Virus record (IMG/VR): IMGVR_UViG_3300025164_000635
Location: 31,305 to 95,304 of that record
Origin: a virus
Reading direction: 5' to 3' (one strand)
DNA length: 64,000 bases
Part shown: positions 1-60,897 of the stretch, one piece after another
How positions within the stretch are numbered: position 1 is the first letter of the stretch
How the letters are laid out: each line of letters begins with the position of its first letter
Translations under genes and position numbers: made by a program
The notes under the pieces: model-generated
What the model was told of the DNA's origin: nothing
Databases searched by the model: none
What the model saw: the letters and a program-made list of their open reading frames with translations, nothing else

Positions 1-1761
1 GATGCCTCGCTCAGAACGAGGAGCTCCTTCCATGCGGAACGGGGAGATGATGTTCCGACCCGTTTCAGGGGCCGCCGAGAGCATGTAGTCCCGGCGTGCA
101 GCCATCGACACCCGTTTGCGGATCTTGGCAATCTGCTCCAGCAGAAGACCCGCTCTGATTCTTCCCGGCGTAGAAACATGGCCGGGAAGAGCCTTGTTGA
201 GTTGCTCAATGTCATAGCCCAAGCTTGGATCACGTCCACGTGCCACCAGGCCGCCCGACTTCTCGTACCATCTCTGGACGGTCATCGGGTCGCCAGACTC
301 GCGTTCCTGACCTACTTGGTTGATCTTCACAGCCAACTGGTTCAGGGCTTCTCCGGCCGCGGTCGACGTCTCGCCAAAGACAGGCCCGACTCTGGGCATC
401 CCTTCCATGAGCTTGCGGCGTCTCTCGTTCACGAGACGCATGGCCGCCCGGGGAGTCATCCCCTCTCCAATGGATTTACGCCACACGTGCATCAACTCCG
501 AGAAGATCTCGGGCTGGACGGGCCTCATGCCGGCTTCAAACTGGACGGGCGTGACAAGCACATCATCGATCGTCGGCTGGCCACGGAACTCACCCAATCG
601 CCCTTCCTGGACGACCGGCATCTCCCCCGTTTCCTTCTCGGAGGCAATGTCGGGCAGAATGAAGCGGCCGCCCTGGGTGAGAATGGACTTGGCTCCCAGA
701 ATCTCTTTGACGCGGCCGTAGGCCACACGTGCAAAGCCCAGAGGGGATGTTTCGGCAACTGGCTCGGTTGGCTTTTCGGCAGCCCTCTGCGGGAGACGGG
801 TCGGATCAAAGCTACTGACCCCGATCTCTTGCATATGAGATTGAAGCTCTTTGATAGCCTCTTCTTCCGAGAAGTCTCCCTTCCGGGCGCCCTTCGCCAG
901 CATGCCGGCGATCTCGTACAGCGCCCGCATATCTCGCCGCCAAGCAAACGGGATGACAGGCGAGCCGGGTTCGCCAGTGCCTCTCTCGAACTCACTCAGT
1001 CGATGGGGGTGAAATCCAGTCCACTTCTCAATGAGACCTGCCTCATCAGAGGCGGCACGGATGGGGGTATAGAGAGTGCCGCCGGGCTGAAACTCTTTGG
1101 CCTCGGCCACAGGCCGCTCAGAATAGGTGATGTTCTTAACCGGTACTAGCTCCGAGGAAAGATGAGGGATTTCCTCGACGTTCTGACCCGTCATACGCCT
1201 CATGATCTGGCGGGCGTACTCAACCCGGTTCTCTTCGTTCAGGCCGTGCCAAGCGACGATGATGTCTGTCGCAATGGTCTTGGGAGCAAAGAACAGGCTG
1301 GCCTTTGCTCCTGGGGCAAGGCTTTCTCGGAGTGCGTGGGCATACATTTGGGGCTGGAGAAAATAGCCCTCTTCCTTCGGGGTGCCGGTGTATTTCTCAG
1401 GCTGGAAGTGGACCTTCTCGGTGGGCGTGGAGACCTTAACGTCTGAGACGTTGATGATCTTATCGCCACCGTTCCAGAGCACGACGTCAGGCCGTCCCTT
1501 ATAGGGAATATCGTAAGCTCTGCCGGTCAGCCCCTTGATCTGAGTGGAGATACGCGCAACGCCCGTCCCGGAAAGAGTCTCAGGATGGGCTTTTACGAAG
1601 GGGATCAGTGTGTCTGAGACAAACTGATCGAACTCTTCACCGTGCTTGATGTCTTCAGATGACCAGAAACCCTGCTTGGGATCGCTGGAGAGGTAGGGCC
1701 AGCCTTTAGCGGAATAAGCGGCCGCGCTCGGTCTGACTTCGGGACGATCAGGAGGAGGCAT
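1..1761 (-). CDS. Large virion protein at the tape-measure position (partial, >=587 aa, runs off window) with N-terminal PD-(D/E)xK nuclease-like domain
   Basis: Manual translation from ATG 1761 (MPPPDRPEVRPS...) is stop-free to base 1. It follows the tail tube and two chaperone genes. Motifs GRPDVV (D92), SDVK (D107/K109) and LQPQMYAHAL (Q136xxxY140). Confidence 0.75.
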   Translation of the reverse strand, partial: MPPPDRPEVRPSAAAYSAKGWPYLSSDPKQGFWSSEDIKHGEEFDQFVSDTLIPFVKAHPETLSGTGVARISTQIKGLTGRAYDIPYKGRPDVVLWNGGDKIINVSDVKVSTPTEKVHFQPEKYTGTPKEEGYFLQPQMYAHALRESLAPGAKASLFFAPKTIATDIIVAWHGLNEENRVEYARQIMRRMTGQNVEEIPHLSSELVPVKNITYSERPVAEAKEFQPGGTLYTPIRAASDEAGLIEKWTGFHPHRLSEFERGTGEPGSPVIPFAWRRDMRALYEIAGMLAKGARKGDFSEEEAIKELQSHMQEIGVSSFDPTRLPQRAAEKPTEPVAETSPLGFARVAYGRVKEILGAKSILTQGGRFILPDIASEKETGEMPVVQEGRLGEFRGQPTIDDVLVTPVQFEAGMRPVQPEIFSELMHVWRKSIGEGMTPRAAMRLVNERRRKLMEGMPRVGPVFGETSTAAGEALNQLAVKINQVGQERESGDPMTVQRWYEKSGGLVARGRDPSLGYDIEQLNKALPGHVSTPGRIRAGLLLEQIAKIRKRVSMAARRDYMLSAAPETGRNIISPFRMEGAPRSERGI

Positions 1762-18974: not shown

Positions 18975-19036
18975 CGCAGAGAGGGGCTAGGCCATAGGCT
19001 TAGCTCTAATGCGGCATACCGGTCTCAAGCCCGGTA
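18975..19036 (+). ncRNA. Twister ribozyme, circularly permuted (P1 closed by a loop)
   Basis: CGCA-GAGAG-[GGGCTAGGCC ata GGCTTAGCTC]-TAA-TGCG-GC-ATA-CCG-GTCTCAAGCC-CGG. P1, P2, P4, T1 (CTC/GAG) and T2 (GC/GC) are all satisfied; predicted cut U19007^A19008. Confidence 0.85.
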
Positions 19037-19263: not shown

Positions 19264-19365
19264 AATATCTGCCTTCTTCCAGGAAGGCAGAGCAGGCTCA
19301 TTCTCTCGGAGGAGGATGGGCCTGCTCTGCTTTCTGGGACTAGAGCCCAGAGCAGAGAAAAGGAG
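19264..19365 (+). ncRNA. Repeated structured leader element, copy A
   Basis: Three hairpins ending in TCTGGG-ACTAGAG-CCCAGA, then GCAGAGAAAAGGAG. Confidence 0.7.
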
Positions 19366-19372
19366 AATCACC

Positions 19373-19572: not shown

Positions 19573-19672
19573 AATCTACTTCTGTCTTCCCCTCCGGGAA
19601 GGCAGAGGCTTGGGTATCACGGTATCCAAGCCTCTGCCTTTCGGGACTAGAGCCCGAAGCAGAGAAAAGGAG
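19573..19672 (+). ncRNA. Repeated structured leader element, copy B
   Basis: Same three-hairpin layout; TTCGGG-ACTAGAG-CCCGAA (stem sequence differs but pairing kept). Confidence 0.7.
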
Positions 19673-19678
19673 AAACCC

Positions 19679-19965: not shown

Positions 19966-20072
19966 AATATCGCTTCACCCCTGCTCCCTCATGGGAGCAG
20001 ACCAGAGCCACTCTCCTGCGAGGGCGGCTCTGGTCTGCTTCTGGGACTAGAGCCCAGGCAAACAGAAAGGAG
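19966..20072 (+). ncRNA. Repeated structured leader element, copy C
   Basis: Same layout; CTGGG-ACTAGAG-CCCAG, then AAAGGAG. Confidence 0.7.
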
Positions 20073-20080
20073 TAGTAGCC

Positions 20081-21172: not shown

Positions 21173-23575
21173 ATGTCGTTCACGTCATTTCGCTCTACCC
21201 GTAAGGTGGTTGTGGTGGACCGCTTCGGGCGACCCACCGGAGAGGAAAGGATTCTCTCTAACAGCCCGATCGACGCCCTGTTCCCTGACGAGAAGATCGT
21301 CATGGTGAACTGGAAGTACGAGGGCGCGAAGGCGCCCACCGCTGAAGAGTTGCGCCGGCCGATCCGCCACGGCGGCAACGAGTACCGTGGTGACTGGGCC
21401 TGGGGCAGCAGCGTCAAGCGCGGATACACTGTGGGCCTGACCCGTGACCTGCTGGTGGACACGGGATTGCTGAACTGCTGTGAGGACGCCCACCGATTCG
21501 GTCGGGCGTTCCTTGCCAACGGCCTGTATGGGGCCGGGAAGGGTGAGCTGCACATCAAGTTCGTGCCCGAAGGGACTCAGACCCTGGCCGGCCCGGTGGC
21601 GGACGGCTTCGGGTATGTGAGACGCTCGGTGGCCGAGAAGATGAATGCCGGACACGACAAGATCAAGTTCGGCACCGCGCGCGACTCGTCGCACTGGTGG
21701 CAGCGCATTCCCTGGACATCCGAGATCCAGGAAGAGCTGGAGCCGCTTCTGCGTGACAACCTGGTGGAGGCTGGTGACCCCGGGTTGTGGATGTTGAGGC
21801 AGTTAGGCGACCGCGATCAGGGTCGCCGCCACCTGGTCGAAGCCGAGCCGTTGATGGCTGAGCACCCGTATGTGGCGAACATGCTCATGAGGGTGTCCTC
21901 AGACATCCTGGCCCGGGCGGCCACGACGGTCCCCCTGAATCACGCGGTGAAGGTTACTGTGCCCGCGAACGTCCCCAACATCGCTGTGGACGGGAAAACA
22001 CTGAGCACGCGCTACCCGATCGATGCCAAGAACTCCATCCGGGCGAACAACAACACGCTCAACACCGTGGAAGCCGAGATGGAGCGGATTGCCGAGATGG
22101 AGCGGATTGCCCAGATGGAGGTCATTCAGTATGGCATGACCTCCATGGGTGACCATCCCTTCTCGGCTAAAGGCTGCGCCGGGATCGTTGACGATGATCT
22201 CCTCGATGCCGACTTCGTGTTGTGCACGAAGGACATCAAGATGGGTGACAAGAAGTTGGTGGACATCAAGGCGGAGATCGTGGTCTCGGTGACCCAGTGG
22301 TTTGCCCAGGGCGAGGCGGTCGGTGTGAATACGAAGTTCTGGGCCGACCAGGGCGGTGATTGCGACGGCGATCTGGCGTTGATCGCCGATTGCAGTGAGT
22401 TGCCCCGCCTGTGGGAGGCGGTTAGCGGGTTTGGGCTCCAGCCCACGCCCAAGCTCATCAAGACTCACACGAAGCTGGAGGACGAGGACATCCGGGGTGA
22501 GTTGGCTGAGAAATCCATGCTGAATGTGGTCGGCATGGCAGTCAACCTCATGGCTGCGACGTTTGTCACGGCCAACCGGGAAGAGATGGCCCACCGCCTG
22601 GGCTATGCGAGTGAGGCTGCCCTGGATAACGCCCTGAATTACTGGGTGAAAGCAGGCACGGATCTCTTCAAGGTGTCTGTCGACACCAAGCAGCTCATGC
22701 AAGATCTCTCTCGGTTCCAGAGCAAGCTGGTCAATGTGCTCGGTACGCTGCCGCCGTGGGTGAGCTGGCCCAACGACTGGGCCTTCACGCACGGCGTCCC
22801 GTCCTTCTGGAACGAGGACGAGATGGGTCACCTGAAGAGCGACGATCCTGTTCGGAAGAATGCCGTTCCTACCAATTCCTGGTACGACGGGACCATCGTC
22901 CAGATCATGAGGCTGACCCTGCTCGCCCTCAGCGCGATGCTGAGCCATACCCTGGCTGTGCGGCCGCTGCATGACTTCCAGAGATGGGCCCTGGTTGTGC
23001 CGGACAGTGTTCTGGGGCCCGCGATCGGTCTCCAGAAGATGTTCGTAGCCGAGTCCCAGCGCGTCAACTGGGAGTGGCCCCAGGATGTCGTCCGCTTCAG
23101 CCAGTGGTGGGCCGAGAAGGTCGCCACCTGGAAGAACGAGATGGGCCTGGATGACACCCTAGCCTGCGCTGCTATCTGGCGCGCGGCCCATGACATGCGG
23201 AGCAAATACGCCGGGGCGTCGTCTGTGTTCATGGCCTTCCCGGAAGAAGTACTGGATATTCTCCGGGATAAGCCCGGCCTCTCCAAGTTGGTGTCTGGTG
23301 TCATCCTCGGCCTGCCCGAAGTGACCGAGGAGACGGTCATCCAGGGCACCGTTCGGGAGTTCAAACGCAAGGACTCACAGTCCGGCCGGACCGTCATCCG
23401 CAAGTGCTTGGTGGACGGTAACTCGGGCCTACCCCATATGCCCGACATCAACTACCCGGGCGCGATTGCCGTCTTTGCTTCGGATCACCCGTCGCCCGAG
23501 AATGGGCTGAAGGTGACCGTCAAGGTCACCCGGCGCACCAAGAAGTCCTGGTTCGCTGATTGCATCTGCCAGTAG
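21173..23575 (+). CDS. Single-subunit double-psi-beta-barrel RNA polymerase (YonO / RdRP-like)
   Basis: 800 aa; ADGFGYV (aa 144), RYP (280), SAKG (333), catalytic GGDCDGD (396-400). Confidence 0.75.
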   Translation: MSFTSFRSTRKVVVVDRFGRPTGEERILSNSPIDALFPDEKIVMVNWKYEGAKAPTAEELRRPIRHGGNEYRGDWAWGSSVKRGYTVGLTRDLLVDTGLLNCCEDAHRFGRAFLANGLYGAGKGELHIKFVPEGTQTLAGPVADGFGYVRRSVAEKMNAGHDKIKFGTARDSSHWWQRIPWTSEIQEELEPLLRDNLVEAGDPGLWMLRQLGDRDQGRRHLVEAEPLMAEHPYVANMLMRVSSDILARAATTVPLNHAVKVTVPANVPNIAVDGKTLSTRYPIDAKNSIRANNNTLNTVEAEMERIAEMERIAQMEVIQYGMTSMGDHPFSAKGCAGIVDDDLLDADFVLCTKDIKMGDKKLVDIKAEIVVSVTQWFAQGEAVGVNTKFWADQGGDCDGDLALIADCSELPRLWEAVSGFGLQPTPKLIKTHTKLEDEDIRGELAEKSMLNVVGMAVNLMAATFVTANREEMAHRLGYASEAALDNALNYWVKAGTDLFKVSVDTKQLMQDLSRFQSKLVNVLGTLPPWVSWPNDWAFTHGVPSFWNEDEMGHLKSDDPVRKNAVPTNSWYDGTIVQIMRLTLLALSAMLSHTLAVRPLHDFQRWALVVPDSVLGPAIGLQKMFVAESQRVNWEWPQDVVRFSQWWAEKVATWKNEMGLDDTLACAAIWRAAHDMRSKYAGASSVFMAFPEEVLDILRDKPGLSKLVSGVILGLPEVTEETVIQGTVREFKRKDSQSGRTVIRKCLVDGNSGLPHMPDINYPGAIAVFASDHPSPENGLKVTVKVTRRTKKSWFADCICQ

Positions 23576-23578
23576 CAT

Positions 23579-23790
23579 AGGTTCCGAGGCCGATCTTCGG
23601 ATCGGCTCTCGGCTTCTGGGTAGGTGAAAGCCCATCCAGAAGCCGGGAAGGAACTTACCTTCTCTAGCGTGGAGTCTCACCACACTCTCCCTCCCACGGG
23701 GCACGGCAGCCTACTTCCGGGCTACCGCCGTCTTCCCCCTGGGGCTAACGCCGCACTAAAGCTCCGAGAGGAAGCAAACTCCTATAGGAA
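23579..23790 (+). ncRNA. Structured intergenic RNA candidate
   Basis: TAGGTTCC/GGAACTTA closes a UUCG hairpin and a long GAAA-capped hairpin; further nested stems follow. Confidence 0.45.
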
Positions 23791-23802
23791 AGGTGGTGTA
23801 GC

Positions 23803-24126
23803 ATGTCCAAGTTCCTGAACCGTGACGTTGACCTGAAGGCGAAGGTCGCTGGCAAGCCCGGTACCGGTACGCCCGGCCCGCGGCAGCCCGTAGCCACGAC
23901 CGACATCAACGTGACGCAGCTCGAGGCGTTCGCGGCCAAGCTGGAAGCGACGTACCCCAAGCTGGAGCCCAACGACCGCGCCATCGCCAACAGCATGAAC
24001 CCGGCGACGGGCAAGGCCAATATCCTCCTGGCCGGCATCAGTCGCGCCCGGGGTGACAAGGCCAGCGTGACCGTGTACAGCACCGGCCGCGTTGTCTGGG
24101 CGGGCGTCCCCGCGTTCACTCTGTAG
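23803..24126 (+). CDS. Hypothetical protein
   Basis: 107 aa, strong codon bias, GAAAGGTGG RBS. Confidence 0.65.
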   Translation: MSKFLNRDVDLKAKVAGKPGTGTPGPRQPVATTDINVTQLEAFAAKLEATYPKLEPNDRAIANSMNPATGKANILLAGISRARGDKASVTVYSTGRVVWAGVPAFTL

Positions 24127-24191
24127 CCCACAGTGGAGGGGTCCGACATAGGGCCCCTCCCCCCCCACCCTTTCCTGGAAGGAATCGAACC

Positions 24192-24302
24192 ATGAAACTC
24201 AGCCTGTCCGAACTCATCCTACTGGCCGCTGGGTTGCTTGCAACGGCTACATCTGGCTATCACTCCAGCCCTGGGTCACTGGTGATAGCCATCATCCCCT
24301 AA
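24192..24302 (+). CDS. Small hydrophobic peptide (36 aa)
   Basis: GAAGGA RBS; MKLSLSELILLAAGLLATA... Confidence 0.4.
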   Translation: MKLSLSELILLAAGLLATATSGYHSSPGSLVIAIIP

Positions 24303-24314
24303 CAACATGGCTAT

Positions 24315-24353
24315 GGAGCCGGTGCCCGCGGCGGGTGCCGGCTCCCCTCTTTT
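24315..24353 (+). terminator. Rho-independent terminator
   Basis: GGAGCCGGTGCCCG-cgg-CGGGTGCCGGCTCC followed by CTCTTTT. Confidence 0.55.
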
Positions 24354-24354
24354 G

Positions 24355-25345
24355 AACAGGTGCCCTGAGAGCAGCCCCAGATGACGGGCGGGGTATTAAA
24401 GCAGGCCAAAACCCTCACCCCGATGACCGTTCCAAATATCATCCCAGGCTGCTCTTAGGGAATCTGTCCTTAAAAAGGCAACAGGCTCTCGCATGAGGGT
24501 CACCCAGGGGCACACCAGGGGCCCTGAAGGGGTGCAATCCCTGTGGCCCGTTGGAACTTCCGGGAAGTACACGGTGGTAGAACGGGCGTTCTATTGAGGC
24601 GGGACTGAGTAGGCGTCGGCAGATTATGAGGGGAGTCACCCTGGAGCGGGCTCTCACGAGTCGTGACGTGAGTGGTGCCGTGCGGACTGAACGTGAGGTG
24701 GCCCGTGCGGACTGCCCTCATAGTCTGCCGAGGCGGACACAGTTCTGCCACGGTGGGGTGGAAGGCCCTGCGGGGCGTGCATGCGCTTGAATCATGCAGC
24801 CGGCAAGTAATGGCTAGAGTAGCCTCTGGTCCCGTGATCACTATGCGGGGAAAGGCAGGCTTGAGCAGGGAATGCGTGCACGCGCCCTGTCAAGGGAGTT
24901 CTGCCGGGCGTGTCTCTAACCCTGGGCACGCAGCACAATCCTAAGCCGGACTTTGAGGGCCGTGATGGATGGTGGGGGAGAGGCCGGGAAGAGTCTATGA
25001 CCGCCGGTGTTTCGGCACCAGGGCGACGGGCTCTTCCTGGCTGGCTCCCATGACCTGTTTCTCTCATGTGTCCGATGGCCGAGAAGGGCTTCAAGGCAGG
25101 CAGTGGAGGCGTGTGGACGATAATTCCTACGCTGGAAACTGCCGTCACAGTTAGGTTCGTGTGACTACGTGGCCGGCTGTGGCCGAGTGGACTGGTCATC
25201 CACTCGTAATGTGCGGGTTCGACTCCCGCCAGCACGCTTTCATGAGCAGTATAGACGCTTTTTGGTTTGAGGCTATCGGGCATTCATACTGGCCTCAAAC
25301 CCAAACGGGCGATCTATCCTATTGTTTCGGCAATGGGATAGTGAG
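24355..25345 (+). ncRNA. Large ornate non-coding RNA, GOLLD-like candidate
   Basis: ~1 kb with no credible ORF, many long G-U-containing nested stems and two T-loop-like hairpins. GGCAGTGGA...ATAAT...AAACTGCC block resembles the GOLLD 3' domain as I recall it. Confidence 0.6.
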
Positions 25346-25379
25346 ATAAGGAACACATTGCCTGGAAGGGAGGCAACCG

Positions 25380-25592
25380 ATGAAGAGACGTGTCGTCATC
25401 AGAGGGCAGCCTATGAAGTACATCGTGAAGTACATCAAAGACCCAGTAAGGGACAGGCGAGGGGAGCCGCCCTACCGAGCCCTCATTGACGGGGAAGAAT
25501 GTGGCGAGTGGAAGCGAACCGCCATACAAGCGAGCACTGAACACGATCGGATTGTGGCCGAGAAGGCTGCAACCAAGATAAAGGAGGCATGA
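25380..25592 (+). CDS. Hypothetical protein
   Basis: GGAGG RBS, coupled operon. Confidence 0.55.
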   Translation: MKRRVVIRGQPMKYIVKYIKDPVRDRRGEPPYRALIDGEECGEWKRTAIQASTEHDRIVAEKAATKIKEA

Positions 25593-30981: not shown

Positions 30982-31490
30982 TAAGGTTCAAGCTCATCAT
31001 CTACACCGATGGCTGTTGCTTCCCGGTGCCTAACTCAGCCGGGACAGGTGGCTATGCCGCCGTCCTACGCTATGGAGAGAGCACCAAAGAGATTGTCGGC
31101 GGTTTCCTGATGACCAATGCGCCTCGGATGGAACTCTACGGGGCACTCACGGCCCTGGAAGCACTCAAGAGGCCATGTCATGTCATCATCAGGAGTGACA
31201 GCAAGTACCTGGTCAATATGTTCGGGCAAGGGTGGGCCAGGAAGTGGAAGGCACAAGGATGGTACCTTGATCCCAGGGCCACCGTCCCACAGTTGGCCAA
31301 GAACGTTGACCTTGTGAGCCGGCTCCTGAACATGATTGATTCACACTTCTCGGTCAGGTTTGAGTGGGTGAGGGGCCACAACGGGGACCCCGATAACGAG
31401 CGGTGTGACAAGCTGGCCCAGCAAGGAGCCGAAGAGGCTTACGAGCCGGACCCAGGCTACCAACCCAGACAGGAGGAGAGTGATGGGTAG
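30978..31490 (+). CDS. rnhA: Ribonuclease HI
   Basis: IYTDG, GGYAAVL, RMEL, SDSKY, KNVDL, WVRGHNGDPDNERCDKLA. Confidence 0.92.
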   Translation: MIRFKLIIYTDGCCFPVPNSAGTGGYAAVLRYGESTKEIVGGFLMTNAPRMELYGALTALEALKRPCHVIIRSDSKYLVNMFGQGWARKWKAQGWYLDPRATVPQLAKNVDLVSRLLNMIDSHFSVRFEWVRGHNGDPDNERCDKLAQQGAEEAYEPDPGYQPRQEESDG

Positions 31491-33953: not shown

Positions 33954-34894
33954 TCGCCGTCGTCAACGCTCGTGACTGGAAGCAGGATGGGGAGTACATC
34001 GGGTGGGCCAACCAGCCCCGCTTCCCGGTATCCTCACCGCTTGCCAATCCCTTTCTGGGCTTGCTCAAACGAGGGATAAGCCGGGAAGATGTGGTTGCCC
34101 GCTACCGCGGCTGGCTGAGAAATCAGTACCGCGTGAATGGGCCAGCCAAGCGAGAGTTGCTACGCCTATCGCACAAGCATAAGGCGGGTGAGAACATTGT
34201 CCTCGTCTGCTGGTGTAAGCCCGATCCATGTCACGGTGATGTCGTTGCCGAGGCCATAGCAGGCATTGAGAAAACTCTGAAAGTGTCAACTACCACGACA
34301 GAAGAACCCAAATATCCATCCTACACTTTGTCAAACGAGTCTGCCATGGTCAGGGTGGTGGGAGCCACCTACGATCCTGGAACACAGACCCTCGTGGCAG
34401 CCCAGATCGTGACCAATGCGAAAGAACTACAGGTGGCTGTCCGAGCAAGTCTGTCGGTGAACAGGAAGAACAGCTTTCTATATCTCAATGGCCCGGCCAT
34501 GCATGTCGAGCTTCTTGGCGCTCGAAGGGGCTACCAAGTCATCACCGCCAACCTGGAAGCCAAAACAGGGGCGCAAGGACTGACCAGCTTCCTGCTTCAT
34601 CCAGGCGCGGGCAATCCGGCCGGTCTGGAAAATTTCTATGTCGTCTCTATGGAGCACGAGGACCCTGTTCGGAAATTTATCCAGCGCCTAGCTCTGGCAA
34701 CTCCCTGGGGCTACCTGGATGAGTGGGGCAGTGCTCTTTACGAGCACGGCTTACATGAAGGGCTGATTGAGAGTCTGCCCGTGGTCGGTGTCTCGGACAT
34801 CAGGAACGCCATCCGGGTAAGCTCTAGCACAGATGCTTGGAGAGACATCATTCGACTTGCACTCTATTCCGGCGAGATCACGCTCGCCGGTTAA
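33950..34894 (+). CDS. DUF4326-like N-terminal domain fused to an unknown domain
   Basis: YIG...SPLANPF...R..V...Y..WL...L.CWCKP.PCHGDV. Confidence 0.7.
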   Translation: MIAVVNARDWKQDGEYIGWANQPRFPVSSPLANPFLGLLKRGISREDVVARYRGWLRNQYRVNGPAKRELLRLSHKHKAGENIVLVCWCKPDPCHGDVVAEAIAGIEKTLKVSTTTTEEPKYPSYTLSNESAMVRVVGATYDPGTQTLVAAQIVTNAKELQVAVRASLSVNRKNSFLYLNGPAMHVELLGARRGYQVITANLEAKTGAQGLTSFLLHPGAGNPAGLENFYVVSMEHEDPVRKFIQRLALATPWGYLDEWGSALYEHGLHEGLIESLPVVGVSDIRNAIRVSSSTDAWRDIIRLALYSGEITLAG

Positions 34895-34902
34895 GGAACT
34901 CA

Positions 34903-37900
34903 ATGGCACGTTTGGAATCACAGAGCAAACTGTTGTACTACCCCACTGAGCCAGCCATCATTGAGATGATTGCTTCCTGGTTTACGGTCAAGACACCGAT
35001 TCGCCTGGTTGATCCGGCCTGCGGTATGGGCGCCGCCCTGCGGCAGTTCGCGGACCTTCTCGGCGGATCTGCGGAAACCTGGGGCATCGAGCTCTCCTAC
35101 TCCCGATCGGTCGAGGCTGCTAAGGTACTGGATCGGGTGCTGCCTACCACCTTCTATGGTGTGAGCTGGGCGAGACGCTCTGTCTCTCTGGCGTTCAACA
35201 ATCCACCTTACGACTGGTCGGAGACACGGGACGAGTCCGGGAAGAGGTTGCGGCACGAGTACCTCTTCGTCACTAAGACGACCGACAAGATCATCGCAGG
35301 CGGCCATCAGGTGATTCTCATTGGGCAGAGTCAGATGGAAGAACGACTGGCCCGTCACCTGGCCGGCTGGTATGAATCCTTCCAGGTATTCAAGTCGGGC
35401 GAGGACTATGAGAAATTCGGTCAGATTGTGATCCTGGCCTGCAATCGGGGAGCGGCCTATGTCCATCCGGGGAGCAAGGCCATTCAGGAACTCACCTGCC
35501 TGACCGATGACCACCTGATCATGGGATGGGGGAAACAGGAAGAGTCTTATACCGATGAAGAGACTGGTGAGGAGAAGACACGCAAGGTGGAAGTGCCGGT
35601 CTTCACCGACATCCCGCCCATGCGTGCTCGCCAGGAAGATGAGCCTGCCTGGGTCATCCCTTCCCGGCCCGATGAGGATCGGTTTAGTTATGCGCCCGTC
35701 TCTCACACCGATATGGTGGATGCCGCCCTGCGCTGTAAACTGACCGCGGCCGAGGAGTTTCGGAAAGTGACTCATGTCAAGCCGGTCGGCTCTCCCTTCC
35801 AGACAGCCGTGCCGCCCAAGATTGGGCACGTGAGTATGCTTCTCGGTGCGGGCGAGATTGGAACACTCCCGATCATATTGCCCGATGGGCGCCGAATGCT
35901 ATTGCGTGGTCTGTCCCAGAAACAGAAGGTGCAGACCTCCCTGCCCGTCATGGATAGTAAAGGACAGGTGACCCACTACAACGTGGAGGAACGGGAGAAG
36001 CCTTGCACTGTCATTACCACGATCACGGACAAAGAAATTGAACTGGTGTCCGACATCAACAGTGTGGGCGATCTCATCACTCGCTATGCCGATCCTCTAG
36101 CCTCTGCTATCTTGCAGAGGAATCCGGCCACCTATGGCTTCGACCCCACTGAATCTGAATGGCGTTCCCTGGACGGCGTGGCGGCCCAGCTACCGCCCCT
36201 TCCAGGAAGAGACGAGCGTGGCTTGTTCAACGCCCAGAGACATCTTGCCATCGCCGGGAAGAGAGTACTCCAGCAACATGGCCACCTGATCATCAACGGG
36301 GAAATGGGTATTGGCAAGACGGCTATGGCTGTCTCCATCTTGGTGCTGATGAATAGCACACTGGGGCTGGTGAGGGAGATGAACCAGTGGCCAGCCCTGA
36401 TCTACTGCCCAGGTCATATGGTCGGCAAGTGGCGTCGGGATACGGAAGCCATCGCCAAGCCAGATGAGCCGATTGCCGCGCGGATCATCAGTGATCCCGT
36501 GCGCCGTGGCCGAACCTTCTACCACAATGTGATTCTGCCTCTCATCGAGGAGGCGGAAGGCGAGGTCACCAGCCGGGAAAGGACGCAGGTCGATCCGATA
36601 GCCGACAGCGATTCCGGCGGCCGCTGTAGGCTGACCGTCCGCGTTTCGCCGCGAAACAGGACCCGTCTAGTCAGGGCGCTGGAACAGGCAACCCGTGTGA
36701 CCTTCCGGGCCAAGAGGCGCAACGGTGACTCAGGCAGCCCGAGTGTCAGGCTGACCATGACGACCCAATTCACCATCGATGGCTTCCAGGCACATTACTT
36801 CGATCAGGATGAGTACACCCTGTTCGATTTCGCGTCTGACTGGCAGGCAGGCCGGCTTGGAAAGAGGGCCGTCGCCATCGTTGCGTTTGACCCTGGCAAG
36901 TATGGGGCTGGAGCGGTCCAGATAGTGCCAGAGCACTACTCCTCCAAGATGGGGCCGTCCAAGCATTACACACCCTGGGATAGAACTCAGGATGACAAGG
37001 ATGTCCGGCCCATCCCGGCCCTGTTTGGAGCCGGTGAGGTTCTCAAGGAACGGCTTCTACTGCGCTGGAAGAAAGGCATCACCGTCGTCGATAGTGAGGA
37101 CGGTAAGAGTGCTGTTGAGGAAGAGAGGAAAGTCAGAGCGTTCCAGTGCCCCATATGTGGCTGTCACTACATGGACTGGAACAAGATTCCTGACTTCTGT
37201 GCCGGGAAGGTGGACAAGGGCTACTGGCACTTCGATGAATCTGAGCGGACCGATGGGAAGGAAGGAAAGTGGAAGTGGCAAAAGGTTGAGGGTAAGTGTC
37301 AGACCCCTCTATTTGAGATGTCGAGATGGCGCCGGGAAGGGGTTGCCCGTCTTATCCAGAAGAAATTCAGACATCTGTTCAAGATTTACATCGCCGATGA
37401 AGTGCATAAGGCCCAGGCGGCCCGCACAGACATCGGCGTGGCCGACTCCCGGTTCATTGCCGGCACTCGGTACTCGATTGCTTTGACTGGCACTCTGTTC
37501 GGTGGAACCGCCTCCTCTCTGTTCTATCTGCTCTACCGGAGAAATCCAGAAGTGAGACAGAACTACTCCTATGAGGACGGCCACAGTCTATGGGTCAATC
37601 ACCATGGTTTGTTGAAATACACCTACTCTCAGGACGAAGCACCCCGGCCAGGGGATCGGGGAGCCACGACCAACATCAAGCGTTGGAACTATCGATCCAC
37701 AGAGCTTCCCGGCATCATGCCCTCGGTCATAAGGTTTCTCTTGCCCATCACCTTGTTTGCAAGGATTACCGACCTGGGCTACCAGTTGCCGCCTCTCCAC
37801 GAGCACATTGAGCGTATTCCGATGAGTCCTGAGATGGTGGAAACATACGCTAAAATCACCGGCCCTATGCTCAAGAAGGCGGTGACGATCGCCAAAGAGG

Positions 37901-38949
37901 ACAAGGACCCAGGCTGTTTGTCGATCTGGTTCCGAGCGGCCTGGATGTGGCCGAACGCCGCCTTCCGGGACGCCCACTTCACGCGAGGTGAGTTCGACTG
38001 GAAGTTCAAAGCCTGCCCTGGTATCCTGCCGAAGGAAGCCCGACTCCGTGAGATTGTCCGTGAGAACCGGGAAGCAGGGCGCAAGACCTTGATCTTCGTC
38101 GAGCAGTCCGCGACGAGAGACATCCGGGAAAGGCTGCGAACCGTCATCAGGAACGGACATGACGACGTAGAGATTGCTGTCATCGAGGACAGTGAACTCA
38201 CCGAGAACGAGAACGGGATTGATCTCGATCTGAAGGTATCCCTGCTCAGCGCCGGTGACATGAGTCCAGCCAAGCGGGAGAGATGGATCAAGCTGCACGC
38301 GCCCACGATGAGCGCACTCATCGTGAATCCAAAGCTGGTCGAGACCGGGCTGGATCTCGTTATGTTCAACCACATCGTGTTCTACGAGCTGCCCCTATCC
38401 CTGTACGTCCTATGGCAGGCGCAGAGGCGAGTGTGGCGACTAGGTCAGAAGTCAGACGTCGACGTCACCTTCCTGGTCTACGTCGATGAAACCGGCCATA
38501 GCATGGAGGCTCGTCTGCTGGACTTGATGGGCTTGAAGATGAAGTTCGCCCTGGTGCTGTACGGAGACGAGGCGACCGGCGCCCTCATCTCGATGGATGA
38601 CGATGACCTGGAACGGGAGATCATCCGGGCAGCCCTGGAAGGCAAGAGCTACGCTGACTTGGGAGAAGTGGTGCAAGTGGGTCATATCTTCTCGACCAGC
38701 GAGACGGGAAGAGAGTCGGGTCAGACCGCCATCAGCGCCAGCCCCTTCGGAGAGCCTACGGCCACCTCGGTCAACTTTATGGAGATTGAGGAAGCCCTGG
38801 AGCCCGAGCCGGTGCTCGTTGTGGACGACCCTGAACTAGAAGCCATGACCATCCCGGTTCCAGCCGGGAAGGTGACTGCTCAACTGGATATGTTTGGCGG
38901 CCTGGTGAACATCGGGTCGCTGCCGCGTTCCCGGAAGAGGAAATGGTAA
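34903..38949 (+). CDS. Methyltransferase-SF2/SNF2 helicase fusion (DarB-like)
   Basis: YYPT, DPACGMG, GIEL, NPPY; GEMGIGKT, IADEVH, LTGT, VETGLDL, QAQRRVWRLGQ; 1348 aa. Confidence 0.85.
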   Translation: MARLESQSKLLYYPTEPAIIEMIASWFTVKTPIRLVDPACGMGAALRQFADLLGGSAETWGIELSYSRSVEAAKVLDRVLPTTFYGVSWARRSVSLAFNNPPYDWSETRDESGKRLRHEYLFVTKTTDKIIAGGHQVILIGQSQMEERLARHLAGWYESFQVFKSGEDYEKFGQIVILACNRGAAYVHPGSKAIQELTCLTDDHLIMGWGKQEESYTDEETGEEKTRKVEVPVFTDIPPMRARQEDEPAWVIPSRPDEDRFSYAPVSHTDMVDAALRCKLTAAEEFRKVTHVKPVGSPFQTAVPPKIGHVSMLLGAGEIGTLPIILPDGRRMLLRGLSQKQKVQTSLPVMDSKGQVTHYNVEEREKPCTVITTITDKEIELVSDINSVGDLITRYADPLASAILQRNPATYGFDPTESEWRSLDGVAAQLPPLPGRDERGLFNAQRHLAIAGKRVLQQHGHLIINGEMGIGKTAMAVSILVLMNSTLGLVREMNQWPALIYCPGHMVGKWRRDTEAIAKPDEPIAARIISDPVRRGRTFYHNVILPLIEEAEGEVTSRERTQVDPIADSDSGGRCRLTVRVSPRNRTRLVRALEQATRVTFRAKRRNGDSGSPSVRLTMTTQFTIDGFQAHYFDQDEYTLFDFASDWQAGRLGKRAVAIVAFDPGKYGAGAVQIVPEHYSSKMGPSKHYTPWDRTQDDKDVRPIPALFGAGEVLKERLLLRWKKGITVVDSEDGKSAVEEERKVRAFQCPICGCHYMDWNKIPDFCAGKVDKGYWHFDESERTDGKEGKWKWQKVEGKCQTPLFEMSRWRREGVARLIQKKFRHLFKIYIADEVHKAQAARTDIGVADSRFIAGTRYSIALTGTLFGGTASSLFYLLYRRNPEVRQNYSYEDGHSLWVNHHGLLKYTYSQDEAPRPGDRGATTNIKRWNYRSTELPGIMPSVIRFLLPITLFARITDLGYQLPPLHEHIERIPMSPEMVETYAKITGPMLKKAVTIAKEDKDPGCLSIWFRAAWMWPNAAFRDAHFTRGEFDWKFKACPGILPKEARLREIVRENREAGRKTLIFVEQSATRDIRERLRTVIRNGHDDVEIAVIEDSELTENENGIDLDLKVSLLSAGDMSPAKRERWIKLHAPTMSALIVNPKLVETGLDLVMFNHIVFYELPLSLYVLWQAQRRVWRLGQKSDVDVTFLVYVDETGHSMEARLLDLMGLKMKFALVLYGDEATGALISMDDDDLEREIIRAALEGKSYADLGEVVQVGHIFSTSETGRESGQTAISASPFGEPTATSVNFMEIEEALEPEPVLVVDDPELEAMTIPVPAGKVTAQLDMFGGLVNIGSLPRSRKRKW
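36642..36658. repeat. parS-like palindrome copy 3
   Basis: CGTTTCGCCGCGAAACA inside the helicase gene. Confidence 0.8.
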
Positions 38950-48283: not shown

Positions 48284-48711
48284 TGGGGCGTCTAATTGGA
48301 TTGATAGGGTGTCTGCCGATCGGTGTCATCCTGGCATTGGCGCTGTTGGCACAGGGAACTGCCAACATCGGCTTCGGTGTAGCGTCTGCTGAGATGGGCG
48401 CTACAGTCCTGACCCAGACCCTCATGCAGCCGATCCTCATGCTGGTCTGTGGGGCAGGGGGGTTCCTGCTCGCCCTCCCAGTCCTGGCTGCACTCTACAT
48501 CTACGCGCAGATAAGGCTCGGTAAGAAGGCAGCCGACCTCTGGGAGAATACACCACGGCTTCCTCTACCGAGCCGGGAAGAACGGAAGCCCAAGCCCGCC
48601 CTACCGACCGCCGCAGATGCTTTGGCGCTACCGAAGTCTGACGAGAGCATGGTGGTTCGGCGCCGGCGTGTGCCGGCCCACCGAGAGATTCATATTCCGA
48701 GGAACTTCTAA
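48280..48711 (+). CDS. Membrane protein
   Basis: Two to three hydrophobic segments. Confidence 0.6.
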   Translation: MMGRLIGLIGCLPIGVILALALLAQGTANIGFGVASAEMGATVLTQTLMQPILMLVCGAGGFLLALPVLAALYIYAQIRLGKKAADLWENTPRLPLPSREERKPKPALPTAADALALPKSDESMVVRRRRVPAHREIHIPRNF

Positions 48712-48712
48712 G

Positions 48713-50581
48713 ATGAAGCACAGGATCGCCGCAGGGTTGCTCTTCCTGGCACTGGTGATGGGATTCACCGGATGCGTGAACGATCCTTGCACGGGTGCCA
48801 GTCCTGAGTTGTGTGGCCAGTTCCGGGCACAGGTAGCAGGCACGGCCACCGTAGGAGCCGCCAGCGCGCGTGCTCAGGCTACCCAATCTGCCATTGACGC
48901 AGGCTTGGCTGCTGCGAAAGCGACGGCCATCATCAAGGAGGCCAATGCGGAGGCAGATAGAGCAGCAGCCGAAATCAGGCTGGCTCAGGAGAAGGCGGAC
49001 CGGGAAGCAACTCTGGAGGCCCGAGCCGCAGAGCAGCAGGCCACGATCACCCAGGGTAAGGCCGATCTAGAAGCAACCACGACTACAGGTGAAGCCTACA
49101 TGGCTGCAACCGCTACCCTGACGGCCATCCAGACTAAGAGCCATCAGGATACGCTCAACGCAATCGGCATGTTTGTCCGAGATGTGGTGTTTTACGCGGG
49201 CGGCCTGACTATTCTCTTCCTAGCCTGCTACTGGGCCGTGAACTACATTCGCCGCAAGTCGGCGATTTCCGATACACCGGCTGGCACCATTCTGGTGTTA
49301 CCAAGTGGCAACCCGTTTGCTGCCCGGCTGATCATCCCGCTTCTGGCTGAGCGTGCCGTGATCGACTCTCATGATGCGCCCGAGAGGGCCAGCGACGACA
49401 CCATCCGGCGCAAGCAGGTGATCGACCTGGCGCTGGCGGCCGCACGTGCCAATGCAGATGTGGTCAATGAGGCTGACGTGATTGAGGGAAGTGGGTGGGC
49501 TGAGGCGGGCCGCACTCCGCAGCCGGAACTGCCCGCAGCCATTGCCTTGCCTCTTCCCAGTAACATCGATCGCTCTCGGCTCGTGTTGCCCCCTCCCTAC
49601 CGGGAGATTGCAGCATCCTGGAGGCCGACTGCCGAACGGATGCTGCTTGGCTACACGCCCGATGGTCAGCCGCTCTATGGCAAGATCGATGATCTCCTGT
49701 CCGTGACGGTCATCGGCCGGCAGGGGACCGGGAAGACAACGCTGGAGCGCTTCATCTATGTCCAGTGTGTCCAGCTCGGGGCGCGCGTTATTGTCTGGGA
49801 CCCACACGATGACATCGTGGATAGTCTCCCTGGTACAGAAGCCTGCATCGAGGCCGAGACTATTCAAAGGTCCGCGTCTCAAGTCTTGGCTATTCTGAAT
49901 GGCCGCCGTCAGGCCAAGCTACATCACGAGCAGGTCATTCTCGTTATTGTGGACGAGTACAACGCGCTGGTGCACGCAGCCGAGGTCGCTCCCGTGATCC
50001 AGGAGCTCGTCACACAGGGACGGAAGTACCGGCTGTTCTGCATCGTTTCCGTGAAGGGCGCCCCGGCTGCCTCCTTTGGCGGTGCTTGGATTCGGGATGC
50101 CTTCTCGGCCCACTACGCTTTCAACTGCCGGCCTTCCACGGCCCGACAGATTGGGTTTGACGGTGAGGCGGCCCGACAAGTCGAGCTGCTCCGCCCTGGG
50201 GAGGCGCTCCTGGAAGGGAGTGCCCCGCCCCAGATGGTGCTCATCCCACAGACAACCATTGATGACGTAAGGGCCATTTTCCCCACTTCCAGCAATGGAA
50301 ATGGGGCTGGAAGTGGGGCTGGAAGTGGGGAAACGGTCATTGACCAGCTTCCCGGAAACGGGCTTGGAAGTGGGCTGGAAACGGGCCTGGAAGTGGGCTC
50401 GGAAATGGGGGCCGTAGACCCCCAAAAGCTGGAGCTCGTCCGGCTGGCGATGATGCGTGGCGCATCCGTCAAGGACATCCTTCAGCAGGTCTTCGCTAGT
50501 TCTACGAGTGGCAGCGGCTACAAGGACGCCCTGGCCGAGCTACGGCGCTACCAGGCCGTGATTGCATCCCAAGGAGGATAA
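48713..50581 (+). CDS. Membrane-anchored FtsK/HerA-superfamily ATPase (TraB/FtsK-like)
   Basis: Signal/lipobox FTG-C, Ala-rich coiled coil, TM, GRQGTGKT, WDPH, VIVDEYN, GRKY, short helical C-terminal domain. Confidence 0.75.
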   Translation: MKHRIAAGLLFLALVMGFTGCVNDPCTGASPELCGQFRAQVAGTATVGAASARAQATQSAIDAGLAAAKATAIIKEANAEADRAAAEIRLAQEKADREATLEARAAEQQATITQGKADLEATTTTGEAYMAATATLTAIQTKSHQDTLNAIGMFVRDVVFYAGGLTILFLACYWAVNYIRRKSAISDTPAGTILVLPSGNPFAARLIIPLLAERAVIDSHDAPERASDDTIRRKQVIDLALAAARANADVVNEADVIEGSGWAEAGRTPQPELPAAIALPLPSNIDRSRLVLPPPYREIAASWRPTAERMLLGYTPDGQPLYGKIDDLLSVTVIGRQGTGKTTLERFIYVQCVQLGARVIVWDPHDDIVDSLPGTEACIEAETIQRSASQVLAILNGRRQAKLHHEQVILVIVDEYNALVHAAEVAPVIQELVTQGRKYRLFCIVSVKGAPAASFGGAWIRDAFSAHYAFNCRPSTARQIGFDGEAARQVELLRPGEALLEGSAPPQMVLIPQTTIDDVRAIFPTSSNGNGAGSGAGSGETVIDQLPGNGLGSGLETGLEVGSEMGAVDPQKLELVRLAMMRGASVKDILQQVFASSTSGSGYKDALAELRRYQAVIASQGG

Positions 50582-59295: not shown

Positions 59296-60896
59296 GCCTA
59301 GCCACCGAAACCCGAAAGGTTGAACTCAGATTGTTGGGCTTGTCGGTCGTTCTGCCGACCGACAATGGAGCGCTGGATGTGATTCGGTCTATCGTCCGGG
59401 ACATAGCTATGCGCTTCCCAGTGGATAGTCAGCTAGATTGGCTCTTTCATGATGTACAGATTCGTGCCATCATGAAGGTAGCTGTGGATGCCGTAAAGCT
59501 CGGGGCCGATCCCGATCCGCACAACATTGCCCAGGCCATTATTGCTTATGGCCTAAGCGATGCCTTTAAGTCGCTTGATTCTGATGTGATTGCTAAGCGC
59601 ATTGAGACTCTAGTCCAGGAAGGGCGGGGGGATCAAGTTCCGACGCCGGCTCTGGCTCGCTTTGTGAGTGGGTCTCTGACCAAGCTCAGCCAACAGAGAC
59701 GCTTGGAAAGTGCTGGTCACATGGTGCTTGATGAGGTAGAGCACGGGGAAGGAGACGCTTCCCGGCGCTACCGTCAGGCCACCCAGATCTGGGAGTCGGC
59801 TGCTCCTCCTGTGGCAAACCTGGCTTCCAGGACCGGAACAGAAATGGCTGCAATCCACGGGTATGAGATGGCATTACGTGCAGCCGGGACCGAGAAGGGG
59901 TTACCACGCATGGAATTGCCGGGTGTCTTTGGCCTGGGCCGGGCTAGAACCCTGTCGGGCGGACAGCGGTCTGTAGTGCCGCTACACCTTTCCCCTGGCT
60001 TGGCGACTCTGGTCACTGCCAAAAGCGGATTCGGCAAGACTATGATGGCAAACGAAATCGCGTTCACCAATGCGGTCAGGGGTCTCAGAGAAGGATACCC
60101 ATACATTCAAGTCCTGTTCCTGCACGATGAGGACATTCCGCCACTCGTGATGGATCGATACGCGGCGCGTGTGACCGGCTTCCCGGTTGGGGAGCTGGAA
60201 GAGGGCTACCACCAAGAAGAAGTGGCAGCCGCCTTCACTGACTGTGCTGACTGGCTGGATCAGATTCACTTTGTCCACTGTCCAGGTGCTCGAATCCCAG
60301 ACCTGATCGATTCTGTCCGGGATCACGCGGCCCGCCTGGATCAGGGTCAACAACTCCTGGTCATCATGGACTACATCAGTGGACAGAAACTCAACTTGAT
60401 TGACATGCCGGGTGACAACGATGCGTACAAGCTGAATGCTGCCTTCAATGAATTCAAGAAGGCTGCGGAGGCACTTACTCGGCAGGAAGGTGAGGGCTCC
60501 ATGTATCGGGGAGAGGTACATGTTGTCATGCTGAGCCAGTTGAATGACCAGGACACGCCATATGGCAACCGGGGCGCGGCTTTCTTTGGTCAGTTGTGGA
60601 TTAACTTGGTACGCCGGGAAGTGGAAATGGATGAGCTCAACATGACCGACCTCATCAACAAGGCATACGAGCGGGTGTATGGGCTACCGCCCGAACGCCA
60701 GGAAGAGCACATCATCACCCGTGGCAACATGGCGCCCATCGCCATGCTCAAGGTCGTGAAGCAAAACATGGGCCCCACGCCGGCTTCTTGGGTGTTGTTG
60801 GACCCGAGGCGCTTCCTTTTCCTGGGGCCACATCCAGATGCCAAGACTTTGTGGTACGAGAGCTGTTGCGCCTACCGGCGCATCGACAAAGACTAG
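59292..60896 (+). CDS. DnaB-like replicative helicase
   Basis: AKSGFGKT, VIMDYI, LSQLN, VVKQN.G. Confidence 0.8.
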   Translation: MSLATETRKVELRLLGLSVVLPTDNGALDVIRSIVRDIAMRFPVDSQLDWLFHDVQIRAIMKVAVDAVKLGADPDPHNIAQAIIAYGLSDAFKSLDSDVIAKRIETLVQEGRGDQVPTPALARFVSGSLTKLSQQRRLESAGHMVLDEVEHGEGDASRRYRQATQIWESAAPPVANLASRTGTEMAAIHGYEMALRAAGTEKGLPRMELPGVFGLGRARTLSGGQRSVVPLHLSPGLATLVTAKSGFGKTMMANEIAFTNAVRGLREGYPYIQVLFLHDEDIPPLVMDRYAARVTGFPVGELEEGYHQEEVAAAFTDCADWLDQIHFVHCPGARIPDLIDSVRDHAARLDQGQQLLVIMDYISGQKLNLIDMPGDNDAYKLNAAFNEFKKAAEALTRQEGEGSMYRGEVHVVMLSQLNDQDTPYGNRGAAFFGQLWINLVRREVEMDELNMTDLINKAYERVYGLPPERQEEHIITRGNMAPIAMLKVVKQNMGPTPASWVLLDPRRFLFLGPHPDAKTLWYESCCAYRRIDKD

Positions 60897-60897
60897 A

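Follow-up and report, generated by a model that had tools for sequence, protein, structure and literature searches.

Two double-psi beta-barrels (DPBBs), here termed barrel B (beta-like) and barrel A (beta'-like), are the most ancient and most strongly conserved element of cellular transcription. Eight residues are invariant in two-barrel polymerases, corresponding in QDE-1 to D709, R738, and K743 in barrel B and R962, P964, D1007, D1009, and D1011 in barrel A (Ruprich-Robert & Thuriaux 2010, PMC2919709), and complex structures of QDE-1 place Q736 where Pol II carries K979, in addition to K767 (PMC9508822). A structure-based alignment assigns barrel B of QDE-1 to residues 680-783 and barrel A to 916-1018, and barrel B of Thermus phage P23-45 gp64 to residues 91-182 with barrel A from 246, each contiguous (Chaban et al. 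2024, PMC10770324 supplement). In YonO, as translated from the SPBc2 record, DG lies at 249-250, R266 and KG at 271-272 follow, FKM lies near 316, and RSP (492-494) and DNDGD (535-539) come last. The order in QDE-1, gp64, and YonO is therefore the canonical one, barrel B, connector, barrel A, and reviews and structure papers (PMC2919709, Chaban et al. 2024, and Iyer et al. 2021 among them) describe each barrel as an uninterrupted unit, or as one broken only by accessory domains, with a connector between the two. Here we describe a gene in a 64,000-nucleotide stretch of viral DNA (the window; positions 31,305 to 95,304 of IMG/VR virus record IMGVR_UViG_3300025164_000635) that encodes an apparent single-chain RNA polymerase whose two barrels are very likely threaded through each other in sequence, in the order B-A-B-A.

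The open reading frame (ORF) lies at 21173-23575 (+), stop codon included in the coordinates, encodes 800 amino acids (aa), and is preceded by a ribosome-binding site, AAGGAG, 8 nucleotides (nt) 5' of its ATG. An earlier reading made from the letters alone (the sequence-only reading) had described the product as a YonO-like single-subunit RNA polymerase with an apparently rearranged motif order, and every motif that it had placed along the chain (DGFG, RYP, IQY, SAKG, DFVLCTKDIKM, and GGDCDGD) is found in the translation where it had put it. In chain order, the motif residues are D144-G-F-G147, R280-Y-P282, I318-Q319-Y320, S331-A-K333-G334, D347-FVLCTKDI-K356-M357, and G394-G-D396-C-D398-G-D400. 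The stretch ADGFGYVRRSVAEKM (aa 143-157) matches NDGVG-RMSRSVAKRI of QDE-1, where the metal-B aspartate and barrel-B helix alpha1 lie, and its DGFG also matches DGCG of YonO. RYP and the subsequent SIRA (SIQA in the family consensus) have their counterparts in the QDE-1 barrel-A gate loop (RSP...DIQRV) and in that of beta'. Downstream of RYP and SIRA, VIQY...SAKGCAGIVDDD matches VQGRFGSAKGMWVIDVDD of QDE-1, and DFVLC..DIKM matches SQRKWE of QDE-1 and IIFTKSQFKM of YonO. DFVLC..DIKM also resembles the equivalent motif of the beta subunit, DIVLNP..PSRM (KG...DIVLN...SRM), and the family consensus RYPIDSxGSIQA parallels RAPTLHRLGIQA of beta'. The order of the motifs along the chain is B, A, B, A, with the DxDGD loop last.

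This order is not peculiar to one phage. When 1.84 billion cluster representatives were searched exhaustively by phmmer, 140 relatives passed E<=1e-3, of which 74 passed E<=1e-30, and the polymerase family comprises ~140 sequence clusters without annotation in Pfam or PHROGs. Full-length homologues share 33-45% identity with the query, and a word-indexed homologue search with the alignment as query recovered the same nine proteins as before. P282, then K356, then DxDxD follow one another in this order in 94/94 relatives covering aa 254-410, the most distant included, so that the homologue alignment proposed in the sequence-only reading as a check shows the unusual order to be common to the family. 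The motifs are also conserved in the 74-sequence alignment, indicating that they are real rather than chance occurrences. Present there are the DxDxD metal loop of barrel A (D396, D398, and D400, each 74/74), its R-x-P gate loop (R280 66/74, P282 74/74), and the aspartate and two basic residues of barrel B (D144 74/74, K333 66/74, K356 73/74), all features of the two-barrel superfamily; K82, G145, H231, K427, and W669 are likewise invariant, and Q319 (68/74) is near-invariant along with R280, K333, and K356.

Sequence searches with the polymerase did not connect it to any described family. There was no Pfam match at E<=1 except noise and none to PF05183 at E<=1; the whole protein had no match in PHROGs, in a phmmer search of the PDB, or by tblastn against 50,697 phage records, and aa 310-366 alone likewise had no phmmer match in the PDB. 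The family profile returned from the PDB only matches of E 0.5-3 at the Asp loop (P23-45 gp96 and AR9 beta' loops). No viral model in BFVD was close (best TM-score 0.46), and the ESM Atlas neighbours included one cluster named as an RNA-dependent RNA polymerase (RdRP)-domain protein and another with PF05183 in 30% of its members, which serves as a lead only.

Structure prediction, also put forward as a check in the sequence-only reading, yielded a confident AlphaFold2 model from the 74-sequence alignment (mean predicted local distance difference test, pLDDT, 93.8; predicted TM-score, pTM, 0.90) with both DPBBs present. Foldseek against the PDB ranked QDE-1 and RDR2 at the top (E about 1e-7, probability 1.0, TM 0.40), followed by the Thermus phage polymerases gp96, gp64, and gp62. 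VIA-align against 48,161 representative chains returned maize RDR2 (ZmRDR2; Z 14.0, 544 residues aligned, model 9-701), QDE-1 (Z 12.1, 546 residues), P74-26 gp62 (Z 11.0, 449/592 residues), and crAss-like phage gp66 (Z 10.8, 489 residues), all of which stand out above the remaining matches; beta'/Rpb1 chains reached Z 7-8 on model 248-582. With gp62 taken in place of its close homologue gp64, these are also the four solved single-chain two-barrel RNA polymerases (RNAPs) that figure in the comparison of Chaban et al. (2024). Because these are the top four matches, assignment of the 800-aa protein to the superfamily of single-chain two-barrel RNAPs, of the QDE-1/RDR/YonO/P23-45 gp64 kind, is secure for the predicted structure. 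The matches to the four are collinear through aa ~700, with the alignments to RDR2, QDE-1, and gp62 extending to about aa 700, and these, together with the DPBB superpositions, are where the two DPBB folds and the bridge helix of the superfamily were found, that is, in the predicted model only. The "YonO-like" label holds for the single-chain two-barrel type, but membership of the YonO family by sequence appears not to be supported, with no PF05183, PHROG, or PDB sequence match; by fold, the protein stands closest to RDR2/QDE-1, Thermus phage gp62, and crAss gp66.

The predicted course of the chain through the two barrels is as follows, with secondary structure taken from DSSP of two models, that of the whole protein and one of aa 60-410 folded separately (pLDDT 93.4):

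21425..21718, plus strand: N-terminal part of barrel B (beta-like), aa 85-182, with metal-B D144 in ADGFGYVRRSVAEKM; D144/G145 74/74, and DPBBs align from ~aa 116-124
21719..21931, plus strand: all-helical connector, aa 183-253 (DSSP, both models)
21932..22057, plus strand: N-terminal part of barrel A (beta'-like), aa 254-295, which holds gate loop R280-Y-P282 and then SIRA (conservation; beta' chains align from aa 251-256; couplings 280-395 and 284-394)
22058..22117, plus strand: linker helix, aa 296-315, between barrel A part 1 and barrel B part 2 (both models show a helix at 299-313)
22118..22261, plus strand: C-terminal part of barrel B, aa 316-363, with Q319, K333-G334, D347-x-VLC, and D354-I-K356-M (conservation; likeness to QDE-1 VQGRFGSAKGMWVIDVDD...SQRKWE; DPBBs align to aa 373-376)
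22262..22393, plus strand: long strand 364-377, then the C-terminal part of barrel A to aa 407, with loop G394-G-D396-C-D398-G-D400 (Asp triad 74/74; beta' chains align to aa 410)

The chain would thus run from barrel-B part 1 (85-182) through the connector (183-253) to barrel-A part 1 (254-295), and by the linker helix (296-315) to barrel-B part 2 (316-~370), with barrel-A part 2 (~370-407) last. The helical connector stands where other single-chain enzymes carry the rest of barrel B and then the connector. Neither model has a beta-strand between aa 169 and 257, and aa 85-182 alone therefore cannot close a six-stranded barrel B.

To locate the barrels, the aa 60-410 model was searched by VIA-align. 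About half of the top 50 rows were small complete DPBB domains aligned nearly in full, including the designed msDPBB_sym2 (7dww_A; 84/86 residues, root-mean-square deviation (rmsd) 3.1, Z 6.8), reDPBB_sym1 (7dvc_A; 85/87), the VAT DPBB (7dbo_B; 84/86), and VAT-N (1cz5_A), and the aspartate decarboxylases 3oug_A and 2c45_A aligned over 84 residues. These whole DPBB proteins covered model ranges from 57-65 to 314-317, equivalent to protein aa 116-124 to 373-376. The range spans 255 residues, of which only about 84 are aligned, fitting ~24 residues from 120-157 plus ~60 from 316-375. The beta'/Rpb1 barrels 7ob9_A, 6edt_D, 8q3b_A, 9mu7_A, and 2pmz_A aligned instead over 76-81 residues (rmsd 2.0-2.6) at aa 251-256..407-410, and NSF-N aligned to aa 254..407. 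Since the whole-DPBB range (~120..375) and the beta' range (~254..410) overlap, the two barrels occupy overlapping stretches of sequence in the model.

Residue covariation, which is independent of AlphaFold, gave a similar picture. Mean-field direct coupling analysis (DCA) was applied to aa 60-410 of 90 family members (effective number about 88), with statistics that ignore kinship; B1 and B2 denote here the two parts of barrel B, and A1 and A2 those of barrel A. The strongest couplings were 152-341 and 151-340, followed by 111-321, 280-395, 317-382, and 154-376. In 280-395, the arginine of the gate loop is paired with the residue that precedes the first catalytic aspartate; 284-394 was also among the couplings. 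Among the top 50 pairs at least 24 residues apart, B1-B2 accounted for 18 against 5.2 expected (3.5x) and A1-A2 for 5 against 1.5 expected (3.4x); B1-B2 enrichment in the top 100 had a hypergeometric p = 2e-4, and B1-A1 pairs were depleted (0.3x in the top 50 and 100). Covariation thus joins 111-170 with 316-376 and 259-284 with 394-407, and 254-295 with 316-372 is not enriched (A1-B2, 0.6-0.9x in the top 100 and 200). Couplings 78-319 and 79-319 additionally put Q319, which stands at the place of QDE-1 Q736 and Pol II K979, beside the WGSSVK helix preceding barrel B. This matches QDE-1, in which Q736 and the helix preceding barrel 1 both hold the product strand (PMC9508822).

Four segments of the family profile were also aligned by hhalign to a 20-sequence YonO profile:

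aa 144-181 to YonO 249-269, hhalign E 0.0095
aa 272-282 to YonO 484-494, hhalign E 0.25
aa 338-366 to YonO 301-328, hhalign E 0.29
aa 391-415 to YonO 530-554, hhalign E 0.05

The best local YonO match of each segment falls on the expected motif, but the matches are out of order. Each E-value alone is insignificant, and the weight of the mapping lies in the joint placement on the four expected sites.

The superposition ranges, the covariation, and this out-of-order mapping, three independent lines, all support the interdigitated two-barrel arrangement that had been surmised from the sequence, and neither canonical connectivity nor an absence of DPBBs, either of which would have spoken against it, was found. 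Two other wirings of the chain must nevertheless be weighed. If connectivity were canonical, barrel B would be complete in 85-182, aa 296-363 would be an insertion domain in barrel A, and their likeness to the Q..KG..K region would be coincidental. Lineage-specific insertions in the barrel-A DPBB are indeed common (Chaban 2024; Iyer et al. 2021), and the phage polymerase's N-terminal part carries QRIPW, resembling the VRLPW that precedes KG in YonO. We consider this arrangement highly improbable: 85-182 cannot close a six-stranded barrel in a model with no strand between aa 169 and 257, whole DPBB proteins align only with residues up to 373-376, the family's top-ranking couplings pair 151/152 with 340/341, and K333 and K356, like the catalytic aspartates, are conserved.

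Alternatively, a single unbroken barrel could be made of aa 258-375 (strands 258-293, helix 299-313, and strands 316-375), nested within another built from the N-terminal part and 376-407. The secondary structure of 258-375, beta-beta-beta-alpha-beta-beta-beta-beta, is near the DPBB pattern. However, such nesting predicts aligned ranges of ~258..375 and ~120..407, and the opposite pair, ~120..375 and ~254..410, was observed. A1-B2 couplings are not enriched, in contrast to those of A1-A2 and B1-B2, and RYP...SIQA, which matches the barrel-A motif of beta' and QDE-1, is coupled with the DxDGD loop (280-395, 284-394). There is scarcely any likelihood that this wiring is correct.

Several points do weigh against the B-A-B-A threading. 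The topology is deduced from first and last aligned residues and aligned counts in predicted models. The covariation, drawn from only about 88 effective sequences with kinship ignored, gives support and not proof, and none of the YonO segment alignments is significant by itself (E 0.0095-0.29). The CDC48-N alignment covers aa 165..410, a range hinting that strand 162-168 may lean on barrel A, and the exact break points are uncertain, with beta3 of barrel B being either strand 316-324 or strand 162-166. While these points temper our conclusion, we regard interleaved barrels as by far the best account of the data on the chain path.

On this interleaved reading, the predicted three-dimensional active site would be as usual and the chain path alone altered. 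The full catalytic set appears to be retained, namely D144; Q319, K333, and K356; R280-x-P282; and D396-x-D398-x-D400, together with bridge-helix-like and trigger-loop-like elements. The best structural matches, the eukaryotic RNA-interference polymerases QDE-1 (PDB 2J7N, 7Y7P) and RDR2 (7W84, 7W82) of Pfam PF05183, extend over aa 7-701 at about 10-16% identity, and the phage polymerase shares with QDE-1 xDGxG followed by the RSVA helix (D709), Q..KG (Q736, K743), a later K (K767), RxP (R962/P964), and GGDxDGD, as well as, by analogy, the bridge helix (LGxxxN) and the trigger loop (VDxxK). QDE-1, however, has the whole of barrel 1 (680-783), a ~130-residue connector, and then the whole of barrel 2, whereas the phage enzyme has the Q/KG/K part of barrel 1 between RxP and DxDGD. 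SPbeta YonO and the YonO-like proteins of Bacillota are likewise single-chain, phage-borne, and about 800-840 aa long, and have in common with the phage polymerase DGxG, R-[IL]-P-W, a D-x-hydrophobic run to [FI]-K-M, RxP, and DxDGD, but the order in YonO is canonical and the similarity in sequence is insignificant; YonO relatives number thousands, some with PF05183, in contrast to the ~140 unannotated clusters of the present family. P23-45 gp64 and P74-26 gp62 (PDB 8F72, 8F5M) are also compact phage single-chain two-barrel RNAPs and share with the phage polymerase a GDG motif in barrel B, but show no sequence match, and the gp64 barrels are contiguous. Barrel A of the phage polymerase superposes on cellular beta' DPBBs at rmsd 2.0-2.6 A and 14-21% identity. 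The barrel halves of cellular beta are likewise separated, by the flap insertion, but cellular enzymes carry the two barrels on separate subunits, and their interruptions are accessory domains, never a piece of the other barrel. The contiguity of each barrel, in the order barrel B-connector-barrel A, that QDE-1/RDR, YonO, gp64/gp96, and crAss gp66 have in common is thus not found in the 800-aa polymerase.

Polymerases with permuted or interdigitated DPBBs were sought in full-text literature, and no account of a B-A-B-A order emerged, within a partial coverage of the literature that does not prove absence. The chemistry and the predicted active-site geometry are known, and the modelled chain path is what we did not find described. 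With the same partial coverage, this would be the first natural polymerase found in which each catalytic barrel is interrupted by a piece of the other. A conserved interleaved family would indicate that the active site tolerates a radical change in chain path and that part-barrels are separable folding modules, which bears on models of a half-barrel-peptide origin. It would also mean that rules for recognizing such polymerases by motif order (D, K..K, RxP, DxDxD) miss this family. The enzyme, with 800 residues, would offer a compact target for structural and biochemical study.

Relative to the described single-chain enzymes, two neighbouring segments appear swapped, barrel B part 2 with the connector plus barrel A part 1. 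The most economical origin would be tandem duplication of the swapped stretch followed by loss of the outer copies. A beta3-like element is present twice, at 176-181 as WQRIPW (compare VRLPW of YonO, which immediately precedes KG) and at 316-320 as EVIQY, again immediately ahead of KG, and this doubling is possibly a trace of the duplication. The order could instead be original, with four half-barrel (beta-beta-alpha-beta) modules, separate or loosely joined, having fused in a different order than in the other lineage. We think this improbable, and a later duplication-deletion rearrangement of a canonical QDE-1/YonO-like enzyme is more likely; were the original order true, the family would be an independent witness of the assembly of the polymerase core.

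Outside the barrels, the following elements were assigned, partly by analogy:

21401..21424, plus strand: putative duplex-binding helix before barrel B, aa 77-84, WGSSVKRG (by analogy with the structure-based alignment of Chaban 2024)
22448..22462, plus strand: PKLxK, aa 426-430, directly after barrel A (K427 74/74, K430 70/74)
22493..22567, plus strand: bridge-helix candidate, aa 441-465, SMxNxVGxAxN (helices 441-448 and 452-465; G454 73/74, N458 63/74; by analogy with QDE-1 LGMCTN)
22613..22681, plus strand: trigger-loop candidate, aa 481-503, GTDxFK (D497 and K500 each 72/74; by analogy with VDQSK/VDRKR)
22685..23572, plus strand: C-terminal stretch, helical over aa 505-700 and with a small beta domain at aa 706-800 (DSSP)

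In the first of these helices, K82 is found in 74/74 sequences and G78 in 69/74. K82 was considered as a displaced barrel-B lysine and rejected, its position fitting the duplex-binding helix. No counterpart of PKLxK could be assigned in published motif sets.

The linker helix between barrel A part 1 and barrel B part 2 contains a short duplication:

22073-22120, plus strand: 18-nt tandem repeat, 2.7 copies, 96% matches (Tandem Repeats Finder)

The repeat encodes AEMERI (aa 301-306), AEMERI (307-312), and AQME (313-316). Its site and 18-nt period agree with the sequence-only reading, which had counted 2.5 copies and likened the repeat to a linker at the junction. It does sit in the linker helix, but not in a free linker, since the helix is conserved family-wide (R311/I312); pLDDT over 299-313 is 86-94 in both models. 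Only this phage has the extra AEMERI copy; at its position, the 73 remaining aligned members show a 7-column gap. The repeat is a recent in-frame duplication that added six residues, about 1.7 helical turns, at a site evidently tolerating changes in length, and this lengthening is probably tolerated rather than functional.

The phage genome sequence is a single piece of 95,304 bp from an uncultured host. Relatives of the polymerase sit on contigs binned with Anaerolineae and Chloroflexia genomes, plus one IMG/VR contig, and the hosts are therefore probably Chloroflexota. Portal and large terminase are encoded on the minus strand at 13.4-17.5 kb, and a rightward (+) block begins near 18.8 kb with the polymerase gene among its first genes. 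The block also holds a DnaG-type primase candidate (60838-62118) and an AAA-type ATPase candidate (weak AAA_25 match, below the Pfam cut-off). A further gene of the block, at 34837-38949 (+), encodes 1370 aa in which a DUF6094-type methyltransferase is fused to an SNF2/helicase-C domain.

Given that the gene heads the rightward non-structural block of a 95-kb tailed phage, and by analogy with P23-45 gp64, the polymerase is reasonably likely to be a phage-encoded, host-independent DNA-dependent transcriptase, which would transcribe early or middle phage genes without the host polymerase and would suggest host-independent transcription in Chloroflexota phages. Conservation of R280 fits RNA synthesis, since its QDE-1 equivalent reads 2'-OH groups (PMC9508822). 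An enzyme with the fold and wiring described could also serve as an RNA-dependent RNA polymerase, a primase-like enzyme, or a counter-defence maker of small RNAs. In this respect, the nearest folds, QDE-1 and RDR2, are RNA-dependent enzymes, QDE-1 accepts both DNA and RNA templates (PMC9508822), and the role of many bacterial YonO-like proteins has been called an enigma (PMC2919709). However, the characterized phage members of the clade, YonO, P23-45 gp64 and gp96, and crAss gp66, are reported DNA-dependent transcriptases (gp64/gp96: Chaban et al. 2024), and the gene leads the non-structural block in a double-stranded DNA tailed phage; the separate DnaG-type primase candidate weakens the primase variant only. 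Such other roles are, in our estimation, unlikely.

A second polymerase-like gene may be present. A 3163-aa ORF in the minus-strand structural block starts near window position 1761 and runs leftwards past the window edge to genome C1:23607 (locus L007). It carries LGQRRP at ~aa 1130-1135 and GDADGD at 1180-1185, with 47 aa between, a canonical barrel-A spacing. It had no Pfam, PHROG, or PDB sequence match, and hhalign aligned only its Asp loop to YonO. On its motifs, the ORF is a possible candidate for a tape-measure-fused virion RNAP like P23-45 gp96 (8H2M/N), and the two-polymerase scheme of P23-45 (virion gp96 and non-virion gp64) is by the same motifs alone possible in this genome.

Several non-coding or repeated elements were also observed in the window. 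Rfam had no family at E<=1 beyond noise in the ~1.8 kb directly 3' of the polymerase gene (23600-25400), which has no convincing ORF. A Type-P5 twister ribozyme (18975-19034, +; 50 bits, gathering score 37.6, E 2e-7) lies between small early ORFs about 2 kb 5' of the polymerase gene. A 43-nt element occurs three times on the plus strand (19325-19367, 19632-19674, and 20032-20074) and forms a hairpin around the invariant GGGACTAGAGCCC. AAAGGAG and a start codon lie directly 3', and each copy heads a small early ORF in the operon-like run of the polymerase. Rfam returned only miRNA-like hairpin noise at these elements, which could be processing sites, terminators, or phage-polymerase promoters. 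A 17-19-nt palindrome, CGTTTCGC[CG]GCGAAACG, has five dispersed copies on the plus strand (26848, 36642, 44202, 54521, and 59214), several of them apparently within long ORFs, and a run of ~12-nt repeats (TGGAAGTGGGGC-like) lies at 50284-50410 (+) within a 654-aa ORF at 48617-50581.

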